Under the pieces are notes generated by a model. It saw only the letters and a program-made list of their open reading frames with translations. It made no database searches and was not told the DNA's origin. 64,000 nt of DNA from Promethearchaeota archaeon (lineage in GTDB: Archaea > Asgardarchaeota > Lokiarchaeia > Sigyniarchaeales > SOKP01): the NCBI GenBank assembly GCA_019058445.1, contig JAHPZA010000006.1, positions 608,001 through 672,000 on the forward strand, given 5' to 3'. Made by a program: the position numbers and the translations under genes. This document shows, one piece after another, positions 34,325-40,808 of this stretch (positions are counted from its first letter, which is position 1; the number at the start of each line of letters is the position of its first letter).

Positions 34325-35164
34325 TTACGTCTTTAAGATTACATTTAAAAGTATTGGAAAATTTTTTTCGGCTCCATGGATTAGAAATAATCTATTTTTA
34401 ATAGGAATTACTGCTTCATTCCCAGCCAAAATCCATTCTCTTTGGATTTCTTCCTTTATATAGACTTTAGCACCTACATATCCATCAAATGTCGCATCTT
34501 CTATCTTTAAATCTATAAAACCTGGAATATCATGATTCCTAATTTCATATTCAGTTTTGCTTTTGTATGTTGCTAAGGCAGCTTTTATCAAGTTTTCATC
34601 AGTTTCAATATTTCGGTCATACTCAAAAATTATAAGTCCACAATCATTAGTAGGAAATCCTTTAGCAGCTACTAATTCATAATCAAAAATAGTTCTACTA
34701 AGCGATTCAGAACGTTCAATGACTTCCGATTTAATCCCCCATTTACGCTCAATAAGTGGTTTTAAATATTTTATAAAACCAGGATGAACATTTTCTAAAA
34801 TTATTTCTTTTTTCTCTTGAAATATTTTTTCAAGATTATCCCCTATGAAAATATAAGAGTCTTTAAGTTGCTTCAATTCGGTTTCATTCTTGTGGATGAT
34901 TTTATCTAACATTTTAATCGGTGAATTTGCGACATAGTGCGTTCTTTTAGGTTTTTTCTTGACTTCAATACCCTCTACCCAACCTTTTCCAATTAACCTA
35001 TCCAGAATTCCATATATGGTTGTGCGACCTATTTCTAGATTATCCTTTAACCTTCCGACCATATCACCATTCGAACCCTTCTCTAATAACGCTAGATATA
35101 CTCTTGCTTCTTCTGGAGTTAAACCAAACTGTATGAGTTTTTGAATGTATTCTTCATTAACCAA
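34325..35164 (-). CDS. TrmB-family winged-HTH regulator
   Basis: FGLTPEEARVYLALL..GRTTIYGILDRLIGKGWV. Confidence 0.85.
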   Translation of the reverse strand: MVNEEYIQKLIQFGLTPEEARVYLALLEKGSNGDMVGRLKDNLEIGRTTIYGILDRLIGKGWVEGIEVKKKPKRTHYVANSPIKMLDKIIHKNETELKQLKDSYIFIGDNLEKIFQEKKEIILENVHPGFIKYLKPLIERKWGIKSEVIERSESLSRTIFDYELVAAKGFPTNDCGLIIFEYDRNIETDENLIKAALATYKSKTEYEIRNHDIPGFIDLKIEDATFDGYVGAKVYIKEEIQREWILAGNEAVIPIKNRLFLIHGAEKNFPILLNVILKT

Positions 35165-35228: not shown

Positions 35229-35250
35229 GTTGTCACTAGGTGACGACAAC
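35229..35250. promoter_or_regulatory. Inverted repeat GTTGTCACTAGGTGACGACAAC, candidate TrmB operator
   Basis: GTCAC-TAG-GTGAC core with outer GTTGTC/GACAAC, between divergent TrmB and methyltransferase genes next to TATAAA. Confidence 0.55.
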
Positions 35251-35318: not shown

Positions 35319-35999
35319 ATGTCTAAAAGCAAAAAAAGAATTCCTGAAGGAGAGGCAATTTTAGATATGCCTGAATTAACCATGGAAGAGCTAAATGAGA
35401 GCTTTAGAAAACGAATGTGGGAATACAAACAGTTTGTGAAGTTCCTTATAAAGGGAGTAGGAATTAAGGATTATTCTAAAATATTAGAAATCGGTCCGGG
35501 ACCAGGATGGATTACAATTCTTTTAGCAAAGGCAAATCCCACATTAAAAATAACCGGTTTGGAAATATCTGAAGATATGATCAGGGTAGCAAATGAAAAC
35601 AAAGAAAATGAGGGAATATCTGATCAAATTGAATTCATTCTTGGAGATGCAAAGAATATGAGTGAAATAAAAGATAAAACTTTTGATGCAGTGATCTCTC
35701 ATGATAGTTTACATCACTGGGAAGATCCCATTAGAGTTTTTAATGAAATTCAAAGGGTGTTAAAAGAAAATGGTGTGTTTTGTATTAAAGATGGGCGAAG
35801 AGATATTGGTTTACCCGCTAAATTTATATTTAATATAGCAAAGCTTTTCATTTCTAAAACCATGAGCTATTATTGGAAAACGTCAATAATGGCCGGATAT
35901 ACTCCTGAAGAATTAAACCAAATATTAAATCAGACCAAATTGAAAAATAGATATGAATTAAAAACCGATTTATTTGATTTAATAATTCATAATAAATAA
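35319..35999 (+). CDS. Class I SAM-dependent methyltransferase
   Basis: LEIGPGPG, GDA, SLHHW, RVLKENG. Confidence 0.9.
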   Translation: MSKSKKRIPEGEAILDMPELTMEELNESFRKRMWEYKQFVKFLIKGVGIKDYSKILEIGPGPGWITILLAKANPTLKITGLEISEDMIRVANENKENEGISDQIEFILGDAKNMSEIKDKTFDAVISHDSLHHWEDPIRVFNEIQRVLKENGVFCIKDGRRDIGLPAKFIFNIAKLFISKTMSYYWKTSIMAGYTPEELNQILNQTKLKNRYELKTDLFDLIIHNK

Positions 36000-36052: not shown

Positions 36053-36763
36053 TTATTCTTCCTTTAGGAATCTCCTTTTAATCATTTCCGGCATCATAAA
36101 ACCGATATAAAACATAATCGCGCTTATGACTAATATCACGCGAAAAGGTGGAAAAGACAAAACTGTTTCTAAAGCCGCTCCTATCAGATATATCAGAAAT
36201 GCTAAGAGTAAGAATTTTCCCTTTAATTTAATCTCGGGTTTCTCTGATTGTAATGATCTATAAGCAAAATAAAAACCAGATATGATAAATATCACCAAAT
36301 CCAATAGAAGATAAATAATTAAAAATACTCCTAAATCGATATTAACTGGGTCTACAAGCACTCCTAAGACAGAAATATCTGAAAATAGGAAATATAGGAT
36401 TAATACCTCGAAAATTAGAGCATAGATAATATATGCACTAATTAGGGGTTTGAAATTCTTGATTCTAGTGAGGTCGTTTAATGCCACAAACCATACAGTT
36501 AGCGTTAATGAAATAAATGAAAATGTAATTAAAATATACCAAAAGATTGATAATCCGACACCATTAAATAAATAGACTAAGAAACTAATCGACGATCCCC
36601 ACCAGGGTTTACTCATCACTATCCACGTTATTCCTACTAGAATAAGAGTTTTTTGTTTGAATTCTCTATATTTTAACGCAATTTTTAAGCCTATTATTAC
36701 CGAAAAAATTACAAAAAGAAGGCTAAAAAGACCATTTATCACAATAGTAGTATCAATTACCAT
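36053..36763 (-). CDS. Polytopic (about 7 TM) membrane protein
   Basis: Hydrophobic segments; similar layout to 60064..60840. Confidence 0.75.
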   Translation of the reverse strand: MVIDTTIVINGLFSLLFVIFSVIIGLKIALKYREFKQKTLILVGITWIVMSKPWWGSSISFLVYLFNGVGLSIFWYILITFSFISLTLTVWFVALNDLTRIKNFKPLISAYIIYALIFEVLILYFLFSDISVLGVLVDPVNIDLGVFLIIYLLLDLVIFIISGFYFAYRSLQSEKPEIKLKGKFLLLAFLIYLIGAALETVLSFPPFRVILVISAIMFYIGFMMPEMIKRRFLKEE

Positions 36764-36893: not shown

Positions 36894-37451
36894 TCAATAT
36901 TCAAGAGAAAATGTATTTTTAATCCAATCTTCAATATCCTTATTTGAATTGCTTCGGGGTTGTGCACCTTTATAAATATTAATTTGTCGCTCTTCTTCCA
37001 TTTTCTTGGAAAGATCCCGAATTTCTGTTATATTCCCATTTTCAACTTGAATCTCAACCACCGTTCCAAAAGCCATTGGCCGCTGAAATCCCATATGGAC
37101 ATACATTTGCTGGATGAAATCTTTTGCTAACAATACTGTTCCTGTGAATTCTGCTTTCAGATTTAAATTTTGATAGCAATAGTCAAATATAGAATTACCC
37201 GTCTCTTTAGCCGTTATAGGTTCGACTCCATTAATCTCAGGAGGTTTTTTCGCATTTACTAACATTCCATCTAAGATTAAACGGTCGTTTGTAAATTTAT
37301 ATTTCATCACATACCCCCGCCAGCATGCTGTACATCTAAAATAAGATTGTATATCAAAATCTTCAGGAATGGGCAACTTACCACCCTTAAGACCCACAAG
37401 GGAAAATTTATCTCCATTATATAAAAATTCATCTGGGATTTGTGCTGTCGT
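36894..37451 (-). CDS. Hypothetical protein with probable ACG start
   Basis: Frame open upstream of the called GTG: GGAGG-TTTTTATC-ACG ACA GCA CAA ATC CCA GAT; TACWRGY motif. Confidence 0.7.
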   Translation of the reverse strand, partial: TTAQIPDEFLYNGDKFSLVGLKGGKLPIPEDFDIQSYFRCTACWRGYVMKYKFTNDRLILDGMLVNAKKPPEINGVEPITAKETGNSIFDYCYQNLNLKAEFTGTVLLAKDFIQQMYVHMGFQRPMAFGTVVEIQVENGNITEIRDLSKKMEEERQINIYKGAQPRSNSNKDIEDWIKNTFSLEY

Positions 37452-37466
37452 GATAAAAACCTCCCT

Positions 37467-38789
37467 CTAATATAGTTTTAAAATAATATCCATTATGTTT
37501 TGAAATTTCTCTTCTGAACCCCATATTACATATATTACGTTATCGATTGGTATTGCAACTTCTTTTATGGCAACAACCCAATCATGACCAATGTTATTTG
37601 CTATTTTACTACCCTCTTCAAACTTGAGAAGTATTGATGCTCCTAGATATTCTTGGACTTTAGTATATTCGATTTTCATCTCTTCAAAACCAGGGATGAC
37701 ACCCTCATTTTTTAATTTTTCAATCTGTTCTTCAATTTTATTATATACTAGATCTAGTTTATCACGAACTCGCAACTCATCAATTATATCTTTATCATAT
37801 TCGAAGAATATAATTCCGAAATCTTTTTCAAGCCCCATTATACCTAAAACATCAATGTCAAAGACTTCCCTACCCAAAGATCGAGAATCTTTATAACGTT
37901 CAGAGATATCTTCCCAGCCATTGCTAATGTATTCGTCTATTAACAGTCTGAAACTTTTAAGAATTTTTATCTCTTCTTCCTTTTCCTGAATTATTTTATT
38001 TACCAAGTCACCTATAGGCCTTGCTACATAAATTTGTGTACCTCTTGGAGTTTCTAAAACCTTCTCAACCCAATTTTTTTTCAAAAGCCGTTCTATTATT
38101 CTATATATTGTAGTTCTTTTTATAACTAATTCTTTATTCAAATTACCTACTGTTTCTCCTTTTTCTCCTTTATTAAGTAAGGTTAAGTAAACTCTTGCCT
38201 CATCCGGACTTAATCCAAATTTCTGCAATCCTAATGTCTGCAATATTTTGGAAGTATCAAATAAAAATTTAGTAGAAACCTCTTTGGTAAACGGATCTTC
38301 TTTACCTAATAAAACATCTGGGGCCATATAAGGTTCTTTTGTACTCATTAATCTTAATGTTCTTGAAGATAGAGTTATAACATCAATTAGCTGAACTAAT
38401 GTATCCCCTTCATCCAGAGAAATTTTACAAATTATCCCTCTTTCCTCATCTTTAAAACCAACTATAAAATCTTTTCGATTTGAAGAAAATGCAACTAGCT
38501 TGTCAAAGGTATTTTGTATAACTCTATAAATTATACCCATTATCTGAATTGTTTTTCCTTTCTCAGATTCCCATACAGAATTGATATTTTCTATATCTCC
38601 ACCAATATCCCAATTTAATGTAGAGTATATTAAATTGTATATTATTCTCTTCTTTTCTTCCTCTTCTCCCTTTTCTTCTTCAATTAATTCTATAATTGCT
38701 ACAGAATTTATATTTAAATCAGATTCCAGAAATGACTCTGCAATTTTTTCGTAGTTGGTCATATAGAGAGAAATTCTTTTACTTTTCAT
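37467..38789 (-). CDS. Asgard profilin-like domain fused to a TrmB-family HTH regulator
   Basis: N-term SVAIIE..IYSTLNWDI..IQIMGIIYRVIQNTFDKLVA..IVGFKDEERGII; then FGLSPDEARVYLTLL..RTTIYRIIERL; C-term paralogous to 34325..35164. Confidence 0.75.
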   Translation of the reverse strand: MKSKRISLYMTNYEKIAESFLESDLNINSVAIIELIEEEKGEEEEKKRIIYNLIYSTLNWDIGGDIENINSVWESEKGKTIQIMGIIYRVIQNTFDKLVAFSSNRKDFIVGFKDEERGIICKISLDEGDTLVQLIDVITLSSRTLRLMSTKEPYMAPDVLLGKEDPFTKEVSTKFLFDTSKILQTLGLQKFGLSPDEARVYLTLLNKGEKGETVGNLNKELVIKRTTIYRIIERLLKKNWVEKVLETPRGTQIYVARPIGDLVNKIIQEKEEEIKILKSFRLLIDEYISNGWEDISERYKDSRSLGREVFDIDVLGIMGLEKDFGIIFFEYDKDIIDELRVRDKLDLVYNKIEEQIEKLKNEGVIPGFEEMKIEYTKVQEYLGASILLKFEEGSKIANNIGHDWVVAIKEVAIPIDNVIYVIWGSEEKFQNIMDIILKLY

Positions 38790-38869
38790 ATGATCATTTC
38801 GTTATATAATTATAGTATAAATAAAAAAATAAAATAATTTACCCGCGAATTTTTTGATTTTATAGTAGG

Positions 38870-39082
38870 CTATTTGTATTTGTTTTTGAATTTTTCTTTT
38901 AAGTCTTTCAGCAAATCTTTCATACACTCGTTTTCTTTAGATCTTTGAATACGTGTAAAATCATTTAGCATTGAAAATCGCTCTGTTGGGGTTTTTTTTG
39001 CATTCTTTTGTTCATCTGCTTCATCTGATAAAAGTATGCAGGGAATACCATCTATCACTCTTATTTTCACCAAATTCCTCAC
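38870..39082 (-). CDS. 70-aa small protein immediately downstream of actin
   Basis: 30-bp gap from actin stop, GTG start, amphipathic helices. Confidence 0.5.
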   Translation of the reverse strand: MRNLVKIRVIDGIPCILLSDEADEQKNAKKTPTERFSMLNDFTRIQRSKENECMKDLLKDLKEKFKNKYK

Positions 39083-39112
39083 CCTAATTTGATATTTAAG
39101 ATAATTTGGATC

Positions 39113-40252
39113 TTAGAAGCATCGATGGATTACCTGAGGTCCCATTTCTTTATATTCGCGCCGAGTGATCCACATCCTATTAAAAGTCTTCAGAGATGCC
39201 AAGATCGACCCCCCGATCCACACAGAATACATTCTTTCGGGAGGGGATATGATCCTAACATCTACAGAATCCGGAATCTGTTCCTTAATTTCTTTAGCTA
39301 AACGCTCCTTGAATCCCGGATACATAGTAGAACCTCCCGAAAGAACGATATTCGAAAAAAGATCTCGCCTTAAATCTACATCACACTCGTAGATCGCCCC
39401 TACTATTAGATCATCTAATGGTTCCAGTTCTTTTCCTACAGCCGACGGATTGAAGAAACATTCGGGTGCGAGAAACCTCTCCACACCTACATTTATAGTT
39501 TCTCCATCAGGTAACATGAAACTTTTCTCCATTCCTGCCACTTTTTTGGAAAGCATTACCTCCTTTTCCGGATCTAAAGCGACATAACAGAGTTTTTCTT
39601 TTATGTCCCTGACGATCTCCATTTCGGCTGAACTCATAAGGGTCACTCCTTTTTGCCTCAATAGCCTCTGCAAATATCTTGTAACATCACGCCCTGCTAG
39701 ATCGACTCTCTCGATTGCATGACTTAACGCAAAGCCTTCAAAGATCGGTACAATATGGGAAACTCCATCACCGATATCTATGACCGTTCCCGTTACACGT
39801 CCTGAGGCATAAAGAGATAATACTGCCTGAGTTGCTACATATAATGCAGGAACGTTAAAGGTTTCAAACATGATTTCGCCCATTCTCTCCCTATTTGATC
39901 TCGGATTTAATGGAGCTTCGGTTAAAAGTACCGGATGCTCTGAAGGATCTATTCTTAAGTCTGTGTAAAATGTATAATGCCAGATTCTCTCCATAGAATT
40001 CCAGTCATCGACAATTCCATGCTCTATGGGAAAATTTAGTTTCATAACTCCCGAGAGTTCCGCAGCCTCCTCTCCGATATAATATTCTCTGGTAAAGTGT
40101 TTATACTCGGAAAGGATATTGTGATATTTTGGTGTGCCGATCATAGTAGGAAATACTGAACGAGGTTGATCCTCACCCGCATAACCGTTTTTTGAAATAC
40201 CTGTGCCGTTGTCTAAGACGATTGGTTTTGAAAGTTGCTCATGATCTGCCAT
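39113..40252 (-). CDS. Actin (Lokiactin-like)
   Basis: DNGTG..KNGYAGED.PRSVFP, PIEHG, LLTEAPLNP, YASGR, DIGDGV, VLSGGSTMYPG, ERMYSVWIGGSILASL, IHRCF; ATG at 40252 follows GGAGG. Confidence 0.97.
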   Translation of the reverse strand: MADHEQLSKPIVLDNGTGISKNGYAGEDQPRSVFPTMIGTPKYHNILSEYKHFTREYYIGEEAAELSGVMKLNFPIEHGIVDDWNSMERIWHYTFYTDLRIDPSEHPVLLTEAPLNPRSNRERMGEIMFETFNVPALYVATQAVLSLYASGRVTGTVIDIGDGVSHIVPIFEGFALSHAIERVDLAGRDVTRYLQRLLRQKGVTLMSSAEMEIVRDIKEKLCYVALDPEKEVMLSKKVAGMEKSFMLPDGETINVGVERFLAPECFFNPSAVGKELEPLDDLIVGAIYECDVDLRRDLFSNIVLSGGSTMYPGFKERLAKEIKEQIPDSVDVRIISPPERMYSVWIGGSILASLKTFNRMWITRREYKEMGPQVIHRCF

Positions 40253-40808
40253 AATTTTTTCCTCCACTTTAATATCTTATTTTTTTTAGATTTTTATTGA
40301 GGAATCAAGCATGAATTTGATGATAAAAGTATTGTTTAGATTGACTTTGCCTAAAATCATCTACCGCAATATATTATCCAAATTCAGTATTGATTCCTTT
40401 GTTATTTTTTCCAAATTTTTATTACTTGATAATATAATAAAAATTCTACCTATATAAATCTTTGTCACCCTTCCGTGACAATCATGACACATGATCATAA
40501 CATGTGATTTAACAATCGAGGAAAAGACATTTATTGATTCAAAAATTGCAGAATCAATAGGATAAATATATTTTAAACAGTATAGACAAAATTCTTTGAG
40601 GGAAAAATTAAAATTACATATAATTTTTAAAAAAAATTGAACTAGGTAAGAAGATAGCAAAAATTACTTAATCTTTAACGTCAAATTATTTAAATAGTAG
40701 TGAAAACATTAATTTTTAGGATTAGTTCTATATTTAATGATCTACCTATCAGCATCATTATCATTACTTGATATTTCTTATTAAAATAATGAGGTTAATT
40801 TAATAACT

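Follow-up and report, generated by a model that had tools for sequence, protein, structure and literature searches.

A profilin domain joined to a DNA-binding domain is encoded in the window, by which we mean a stretch of 64,000 nucleotides from the genome of a Promethearchaeota archaeon (Asgardarchaeota, class Lokiarchaeia; assembly GCA_019058445.1, contig JAHPZA010000006.1, positions 608,001 to 672,000 of the forward strand). The N-terminal domain of this 440-aa fusion protein is a true profilin homolog with the profilin fold, and it is followed by a winged helix-turn-helix (wHTH) of the TrmB family of transcription regulators. Upstream on the same strand lies an actin gene, which is a second, faster-evolving accessory lokiactin paralog in a genome that has a near-invariant housekeeping copy elsewhere; the promoter of this linked actin carries a palindrome set against its TATA box. 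The profilin homology, the linkage to actin and the conservation of the operator are solid. We infer from them that the fusion protein binds the operator, that it binds actin, and that actin affects its output; the full mechanism, in which the fusion protein controls the actin promoter of the cassette as a one-component regulator and senses actin through its profilin domain, is put forward tentatively.

The genes follow one another on the minus strand in the order actin, small open reading frame (ORF), 440-aa fusion gene, 167-aa ORF and 236-aa membrane protein. The first-pass annotation, which was made from the sequence of the window alone, had placed actin two genes upstream of the fusion gene on the same strand, and this is the arrangement that we find, with one small ORF (38870-39070) in between. 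Translation of the fusion protein starts at Met10 (38762) in the database call and in most homologs. The features of the locus, in coordinates of the window, are as follows.

39113..40252, minus strand: linked actin gene, 379 aa; ATG at 40252 (the ORF finder gives a GTG start at 40267); Pfam Actin, E 2.2e-128
38870..39070, minus strand: small conserved ORF between the actin and the fusion gene, ~66 aa, GTG at 39070
37467..38789, minus strand: profilin-TrmB fusion gene, 440 aa; the Met10 start is position 38762
38346..38762, minus strand: profilin domain, aa 10-148, from sequence profile, AlphaFold2 model and Foldseek
38235..38345, minus strand: conserved linker, aa 149-185, motif SKEPY...LGK...P..L
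38019..38234, minus strand: TrmB-type wHTH, aa 186-257, Pfam PF01978
37467..38018, minus strand: long helix (aa 259-289), C-terminal alpha/beta domain (aa 324-439) and stop codon
40451..40458, minus strand: TATA box TTTATATA of the linked actin promoter, ~200 nt 5' of the actin ATG
40462..40481, minus strand: predicted operator O1, TTGTCAC-GGAAGG-GTGACAA, a perfect inverted repeat
40485..40502, minus strand: O2, a weaker operator-like element with 8/12 specified bases, 22 bp upstream of O1
36894..37397, minus strand: downstream ORF, 167 aa, directly 3' of the fusion gene in ~15 related loci
36053..36763, minus strand: polytopic membrane protein, 236 aa, 3' of the cassette

A profilin homolog ahead of a TrmB-type DNA-binding domain

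An Asgard profilin pattern had been recognised in about residues 10-150 of the fusion protein. The quoted motif string is confirmed in the protein (AII...IYSTLNWDI...IMGIIYRVIQNTFDKLVA...IVGFKD), and residues ~10-148 prove homologous to Asgard profilins both by sequence profile and by fold. When the single sequence was searched against the PDB, Odin profilin, Loki profilin-2 and Loki profilin-1 ranked first with weak E-values (0.025-0.09); a family profile of 49 N-terminal domains retrieved Loki profilin-1 (5yed/5yee, E 3.2e-16), Loki profilin-2 (5zzb, E 4.4e-15), Odin profilin (5zza, E 1.4e-11) and Thor profilin (7pbh, E 5.9e-10), the following match reaching only E 0.057. The AlphaFold2 model of the protein has a mean predicted local distance difference test score (pLDDT) of 73, rising to 80-92 in the N-terminal domain (residues 13-148), where a helix, an antiparallel sheet and a long C-terminal helix are modelled. 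A Foldseek search with this model, a check that had been suggested with the annotation, returned profilins as the first 18 PDB matches, Asgard chains at the top and eukaryotic profilins after them (E 2.6e-7 to 1.3e-3; template modelling (TM) score normalised by target 0.55-0.78). In the family alignment W60 is invariant in the profilin domain, and W73, Y88 and G111 are nearly so. Because the domain profile matched just 148 proteins among 1.84 billion representatives, we regard the Asgard profilins that it describes as a small family.

Stand-alone Asgard profilins have the same fold and a homologous sequence, and the motifs NW(D/N)(I/V)S and I.G.KY.I..NT.ER are common to both; however, they are single-domain proteins of 120-145 aa, whereas the domain described here departs from the small single-domain form of profilins in being the N-terminal third of a 440-aa multidomain DNA-binding protein, to which a conserved linker joins it. 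Relative to Loki profilin-1 and -2 the fusion family is without ~6 residues, probably at the "Loki-loop"; against Odin profilin the alignment is free of gaps there.

The annotation had also placed a TrmB wHTH after the profilin domain, and rightly so: Pfam PF01978 matches residues 188-256 (E 8.6e-15, 54.8 bits against a cutoff of 25.6), in an internal position and not at the N-terminus. It is the only domain found when Pfam and NCBIfam are searched with the whole fusion protein. Its recognition helix, KRT(T/H)IYRI, is almost invariant when tabulated over the 45 loci that we collected. The linker is modelled as disordered (pLDDT below 50 at residues 158-183) yet conserved in sequence, with P153, P173, L176 and L183 retained in at least 90% of sequences; its KEPY...LGK motif is partly shared with three long profilins of the same genome and with methyltransferase fusions described below (among these proteins, those of loci L001, L003, L074 and L075), and the linker may be part of the binding module.

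Behind the wHTH stands a 31-residue helix (aa 259-289), in which model confidence falls; from the model, it is probably for dimerisation. This helix and the C-terminal domain are common to the fusion protein and to a TrmB-type paralog without a profilin domain, encoded nearby at 34325-35164. For the C-terminal domain there was no Pfam match, a profile search of the PDB gave SH3 matches at chance level only, and a Foldseek search with the domain model alone found nothing at E up to 0.001. Its best VIA-align match (Z 5.9), a sandwich of the PsbP/Mog1/DcrB type, lies inside the range of common arrangements. Superposition of the full model on TrmBL2 by Foldseek covers ~300 aligned columns with a target TM of only 0.33-0.34.

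Linkage to an accessory lokiactin and the palindrome at its promoter

More than 100 full-length relatives of the fusion protein (400-474 aa) were found, every one of them in an Asgard metagenome-assembled genome. Linkage was scanned with one genome per species, giving 45 loci with a full-length relative, two of which lack upstream DNA; each of the remaining 43 has an actin gene directly upstream on the same strand, so that conservation of the linkage, posed as a check on the annotation, was borne out throughout. These linked actins are 77-95% identical to the actin of the window, and the gap between actin and fusion gene measures 53-606 bp. In ~24 loci a homolog of the small ORF sits within that gap, at the equivalent position. 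The small ORF has an N-terminal I(K/R)(I/L)IDGIPCI motif and a C-terminal amphipathic helix ending in ...VL.ELKKKF, matched no Pfam family, and could encode a small actin- or regulator-binding protein. The 167-aa ORF, for which there was no Pfam family and for which ESM Atlas gave unnamed clusters only, is possibly part of the cassette too.

Full-length relatives are confined to the GTDB family of the window, where they occur in 45 of 135 genomes from four genera; none was found in the sister family, which includes two closed genomes of 4.4 and 6.0 Mb. The neighbourhood of the cassette is partly conserved on the chromosome, which makes repeated loss a more plausible source of its patchy distribution than mobility. 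An origin as a mobile element was considered and is not supported, since ~37 of 46 loci share the downstream neighbour and 29 the upstream one.

The genome has two genes of the lokiactin type, the copy in the window and another on contig C2 (G000:C2:106651-107766), which are 84% identical. Two lokiactins are also present in five other genomes that carry the fusion, and one in four genomes without it. In a quick maximum-likelihood tree of the actins, which leaves the topology among the linked copies unsettled, the unlinked actins form one tight clade (SH-like approximate likelihood ratio test (SH-aLRT) 98) that spans genera and the sister family, with a mean pairwise identity of 96% and 43 variable columns out of 383. 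The linked actins, that of the window included, fall outside this clade on longer branches (mean identity 84%, 195 variable columns). There are 21 columns that separate linked from unlinked actins, 13 of them in residues 42-81, which cover the DNase I-binding loop (D-loop) and subdomain 2. Within the linked set T53 is changed to P in 37 of 40 sequences and Y62 to W in 32 of 40; the copy in the window keeps Y62 and has S at position 53. The pattern of substitution suggests that the accessory actin has altered filament contacts.

The element that we take as the operator of this actin, O1 (TTGTCAC-GGAAGG-GTGACAA), is found ~200 nt 5' of the actin ATG and is followed by 3 nt and then by the TATA box TTTATATA, its proximal half-site overlapping the position of the transcription factor B recognition element (BRE). 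The core GTCAC-N3-7-GTGAC occurs at three sites in the 4.6-Mb genome, two of which are the promoters of the linked actin and of the profilin-less paralog. Allowing up to two mismatches, we find TGTCAC-N6-GTGACA in 39 of 42 loci in the 600 bp that precede the linked actin, and in every case a TATA box of the TTTAAATA type follows it at a distance of 2-4 nt; the consensus of the aligned promoters reads GTGACAA-N2-TTTAAATA, and the proximal half-site is almost invariant across the 45 loci. We looked across the same loci for covariation between recognition helix and half-site and obtained no signal, both being almost invariant. When 35 promoters were scanned for elements of the O2 type, matches to the motif peaked at offset -22 (on average 6.1 of the 12 bases match, compared with ~3 in the background), ten loci having eight or more matches there, with no counterpart peak at +22. 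Elements resembling half-sites recur at 11- and 22-bp spacing upstream of O1.

The distribution of the palindrome follows that of the fusion gene. Of the family's 135 genomes, 31 contain the exact 18-mer, each in a single copy (a control with the reversed pattern gave none anywhere); 28 of these genomes have the fusion gene, and without exception it shares a contig with the site, at a distance of 1.3-2 kb. Put the other way, 28 of the 45 genomes that have the fusion contain the exact palindrome, as do 3 of the 90 that lack it. Among these three, G152 (74% complete) is an exception in having a promoter module of the actin type, placed where one of its contigs ends; the exact palindromes of G212 and G235, with neither an adjacent TATA box nor an actin, look like chance and were set aside. 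There is no palindrome in the 1.5 kb upstream of the single lokiactin in the four genomes without the fusion, nor is there one at the unlinked actin of this genome.

The palindrome resembles the Thermococcales glycolytic motif (TGM; TATCAC-N5-GTGATA), which is bound by the TrmB-family proteins TrmBL1 and Tgr (PMC4158304). Because the TATA-abutting palindrome tracks the fusion gene across 135 genomes, transcription of the linked actin is likely, as judged from sequence, to be the output of the fusion protein. A rule of thumb for the TrmB family holds that sites upstream of the BRE/TATA activate and that downstream sites repress (PMC4158304); since O1 abuts the TATA box and overlaps the position of the BRE, the direction of control cannot be read from the sequence. 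Another palindrome of the genome, TTGTCAT-AACT-ATGACAA (G000:C3:29835-29852), stands before a TATA-like box in the divergent region between a pair of altronate-dehydratase-like ORFs and a 596-aa oxidoreductase-like ORF; we regard it as unrelated and as the probable operator of a different regulator.

A proposed actin-sensing regulator and its alternatives

The fusion protein would be a one-component transcription regulator of the TrmB family that gained an N-terminal profilin domain, encoded in a conserved chromosomal cassette that comprises the operator and TATA box, the second lokiactin, the small ORF (optional), the profilin-TrmB gene and the 167-aa ORF (optional). A dimer would most likely bind TGTCAC-N6-GTGACA at the BRE/TATA of the linked actin together with the weaker site 22 bp upstream, and at loci with short intergenic gaps the protein probably controls its own gene besides the actin paralog, on the same transcript. 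The profilin domains most likely hold monomeric actin at its barbed face, as stand-alone Asgard profilins do, and occupancy or activity of the promoter would track the pool of actin monomers. Negative feedback is expected under either sign, as repression assisted by G-actin or as activation inhibited by it.

A one-component regulator that senses actin monomer or phospholipid, and so signals from the cytoskeleton to transcription, had been proposed in the first-pass annotation, and this proposal is borne out in part. Among the grounds for refuting it the annotation had named a domain that lacks the profilin fold and a linkage to actin that is not conserved; the results go the other way on both. 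The homology, the linkage and the TATA-abutting palindrome speak for a regulator whose likely target is the linked actin, though none of them bears on phospholipid; however, this actin is the accessory paralog and not the main lokiactin, and the prediction of the complex favours actin binding weakly. Several observations weigh against the proposal, some of them against the sensing of actin and others against the assignment of the operator, and we give them together with the alternatives on which they bear.

Loki, Odin and Thor profilins bind actin in vitro (PMC8410842, PMC12993045), and prediction of the complex between the linked actin and the N-terminal domain, a check of the AlphaFold-Multimer type that had been recommended, weakly favours binding here as well. 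The interaction score (ipSAE, interaction prediction score from aligned errors) is 0.54 (0.44, 0.54 and 0.62 in the individual runs), the best of three controls scoring 0.00; at least 74% of contacts are common to the runs, and the partner has a pLDDT of at least 76. Of 80 solved complexes 58 reach the mark set for ipSAE, as do 2 of 110 mismatched pairs, and at 0.60 or under it takes in only 7 of the 80 solved complexes together with both passing mismatches, so that a score in this range misleads more often than not, except where the interaction was already likely on other grounds. This pass may in any case show likeness rather than binding, because profilin-actin complexes have already been solved.

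The fusion protein may instead regulate the linked actin promoter with a profilin domain that has lost actin binding and either serves for oligomerisation or senses a ligand other than actin, for instance a phosphoinositide-like lipid or some other protein; the effector proper would perhaps bind the C-terminal domain, as in classical TrmB proteins. We consider this unlikely. In its favour, besides the weak complex prediction, the N-terminal domain diverges more than any other part of the protein (its columns have a mean identity of 31%, those of the C-terminal domain 56%), and the Pfam Profilin model (PF00235) does not match the fusion protein at E up to 1, although it has sub-threshold matches to three of the four profilin paralogs of the same genome. 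Asgard profilins bind phosphatidylinositol 4,5-bisphosphate (PIP2) as well as actin, and binding of polyproline and/or phosphoinositide varies among them (PMC8410842). The C-terminal domain, being well conserved and present in the profilin-less paralog too, presumably has a role of its own, and the real signal could be an unrelated small ligand bound there. Counting against the proposed mechanism, two proteins in which an array of wHTH domains is followed by a C-terminal profilin domain (P0209 and P0229) have no actin among the neighbours that we checked. Against a loss of actin binding, on the other hand, a domain unrelated to actin would make it difficult to account for the linkage to actin at all 43 of 43 loci; every Asgard profilin tested so far binds actin; and the strongest likeness to these actin-binding profilins is in the NW(D/N)(I/V)S...D and I.G.KY.I..NT.ER blocks, the latter of which corresponds, in profilin-actin structures, to strands on the actin-contact face.

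A second alternative concerns the protein that binds the palindrome, and here the profilin-less paralog has to be considered.

34325..35164, minus strand: profilin-less TrmB-type paralog, 279 aa
35230..35249, minus strand: related palindrome, 2 nt before the TATA box of the paralog's own gene

If the palindrome were bound by another factor, such as this paralog, the fusion protein would mainly be a regulator of actin, that is, a long profilin with a tail that tethers it to DNA or chromatin, or a protein that sequesters actin. The paralog is 36% identical to the fusion protein over the wHTH and C-terminal domain, the recognition helices are nearly alike (RTTIYGIL in the paralog, RTTIYRII in the fusion protein), and the promoter of the paralog in this genome carries a near-identical palindrome (35230-35249). 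Furthermore, palindrome and fusion gene belong to one cassette, so their co-occurrence follows from that arrangement and does not in itself identify the binder. In three other loci (L040, L044, L051), however, the promoter of the paralog has a distinct variant, TGTCAA-N6-TTGACA or TGTCAT..TTGACA, whereas the actin promoter keeps TGTCAC/GTGACA. These differences suggest that each paralog has a site of its own, with possible cross-talk in this genome. Across 45 loci the fusion protein's recognition helix is almost invariant, and so is the proximal half-site, which likewise argues against another binder, and a wHTH gene with a nearly genome-unique palindrome in its cassette is most simply a regulator with its operator. 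We hold binding by another factor to be distinctly improbable.

The paralog (34325-35164, minus strand) is divergently paired with a class I S-adenosylmethionine (SAM)-dependent methyltransferase gene (35319-35999, plus strand; Methyltransf_11/25/31). At least seven further loci (L022, L025, L032, L040, L044, L051, L052) have conserved this pair, which sometimes lies within a few kb of the actin cassette.

Finally, the layout of the cassette recalls the type II partition loci, ParMRC, which likewise have promoter repeats, a gene for an actin-fold protein and a DNA-binding protein that could bind actin. By this analogy the cassette would be a module for positioning or segregating DNA, with the palindromes as a centromere-like site, the actin paralog as the filament, and the fusion protein as both adaptor and repressor, the two profilin domains of the dimer capturing barbed ends or feeding monomers and so linking the chromosomal site to a growing filament. 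The order of promoter repeats, actin and DNA-binding adaptor mirrors parC-parM-parR of the R1 system; profilin attaches to actin at the barbed face, where ParR makes its contact with ParM; half-site-like elements are repeated at 11 and 22 bp; and the differences between linked and housekeeping actins fall mainly in residues 42-81, a region of filament contacts. Yet ParR, an autorepressor and filament adaptor, is a ribbon-helix-helix protein and the fusion protein a wHTH protein; ParM is a distant actin-like ATPase and parC consists of many iterons, whereas here a eukaryote-type actin is found on the chromosome with one strong site and one or two weak ones and without an iteron array. The chromosomal neighbourhood is conserved in most loci with no mobile-element or plasmid context, and profilin normally departs from the barbed end after monomer addition. 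A segregation module is thus very unlikely in our estimate.

Related systems and other profilin-domain proteins

Regulation of the linked actin by an actin-sensing fusion protein can be set beside the known TrmB regulators. TrmBL1 of Pyrococcus furiosus, Tgr of Thermococcus kodakarensis, and TrmBL2 are alike in having the PF01978 wHTH, a long helix and a C-terminal domain, and both the TGM of TrmBL1 and Tgr and the palindrome of the cassette are hexamer inverted repeats, the latter being a predicted operator at the BRE/TATA. The fusion protein differs in its additional N-terminal profilin domain and in a C-terminal domain that has no sequence match to the sugar-binding TrmB domain and no clear match by fold. 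Proteins of this kind are described as sugar-responsive (PMC4158304); whereas they regulate sugar metabolism, the apparent regulon of the fusion protein is a single actin cassette. As a TrmB-type regulator of one component it would be without precedent in both its sensor domain and its target.

The first-pass annotation had drawn a comparison with MRTF-SRF of animals, and this stands as an analogy of logic: in both, an actin-monomer-binding transcription factor would couple the G-actin pool to cytoskeletal genes that include actin. The parts are unrelated, RPEL motifs and a MADS-box partner in the one case and profilin and a wHTH in the other; neither RPEL nor a related family was found in a Pfam scan of the fusion protein at E up to 1, nor was any other common part found. 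The control of MRTF by nuclear import has no counterpart here.

We know of nothing on how the expression of actin genes is controlled in these archaea. In a literature search that covered few subscription journals we came upon no account of a profilin joined to a wHTH, nor of a second lokiactin under regulation, nor of a promoter element at a lokiactin gene; published work treats Asgard profilins as stand-alone regulators of actin (PMC8410842, PMC12993045). If the proposed mechanism is true, it would be the first prokaryotic case of signalling from cytoskeleton to gene, and a simple one-protein counterpart of the MRTF-SRF circuit that is built from a true profilin. The system points to two lokiactins kept under different control in some genomes of the Lokiarchaeia type. 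With one small protein, one 20-bp site and one actin, the system is directly testable.

The profilin domain is used in other fusions as well. At two loci (L074:577-1884, plus strand, from G184:C16, and L075:647-1912, minus strand, from G128:C8), the N-terminal profilin domain and the KEPY...LGK linker are fused to a leucine carboxyl methyltransferase (PF04072, E 1.5e-33 and 9e-32, respectively) in proteins of ~420-435 aa, one of the two being from a different family of the same class. The C-terminus of actin is in the profilin-binding region, and an actin-directed carboxyl methyltransferase is a tempting candidate idea. C-terminal profilin domains (P0140, P0146, P0192, P0209, P0229, P0236) are fused to Ras-family GTPases in three representatives, and further to the wHTH arrays (501 and 734 aa) and to a 770-aa coiled-coil protein. 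This varied use fits a targeting or sensing module, and such a reusable Asgard module, found with GTPase, methyltransferase, coiled-coil and wHTH partners, widens the range of candidate actin-linked functions.

Four more proteins with a profilin domain are encoded in the genome of the window: C3:76016-76792 (L001), C7:30716-31321 (L003), C9:123510-124211 (L004) and C4:266505-266909 (L005). One is a canonical profilin of 134 aa close to Loki profilin-1 and -2. The other three, of 201-258 aa, are "long profilins" that extend into a C-terminal tail, and the conserved motif IDP(Q/Y)LK.EIE.FL.WI...GLS.YI.YYL is common to two of these tails; most genomes of the family encode a long profilin of ~205 aa. 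The membrane protein that follows the cassette (36053-36763) has a paralog (L004:2518-3156, plus strand) directly 3' of a 233-aa long profilin on contig C9, so that a profilin-domain gene and this membrane-protein family are paired twice in one genome; homologs of the membrane protein are also encoded downstream of the fusion gene in L009, L045 and L050.

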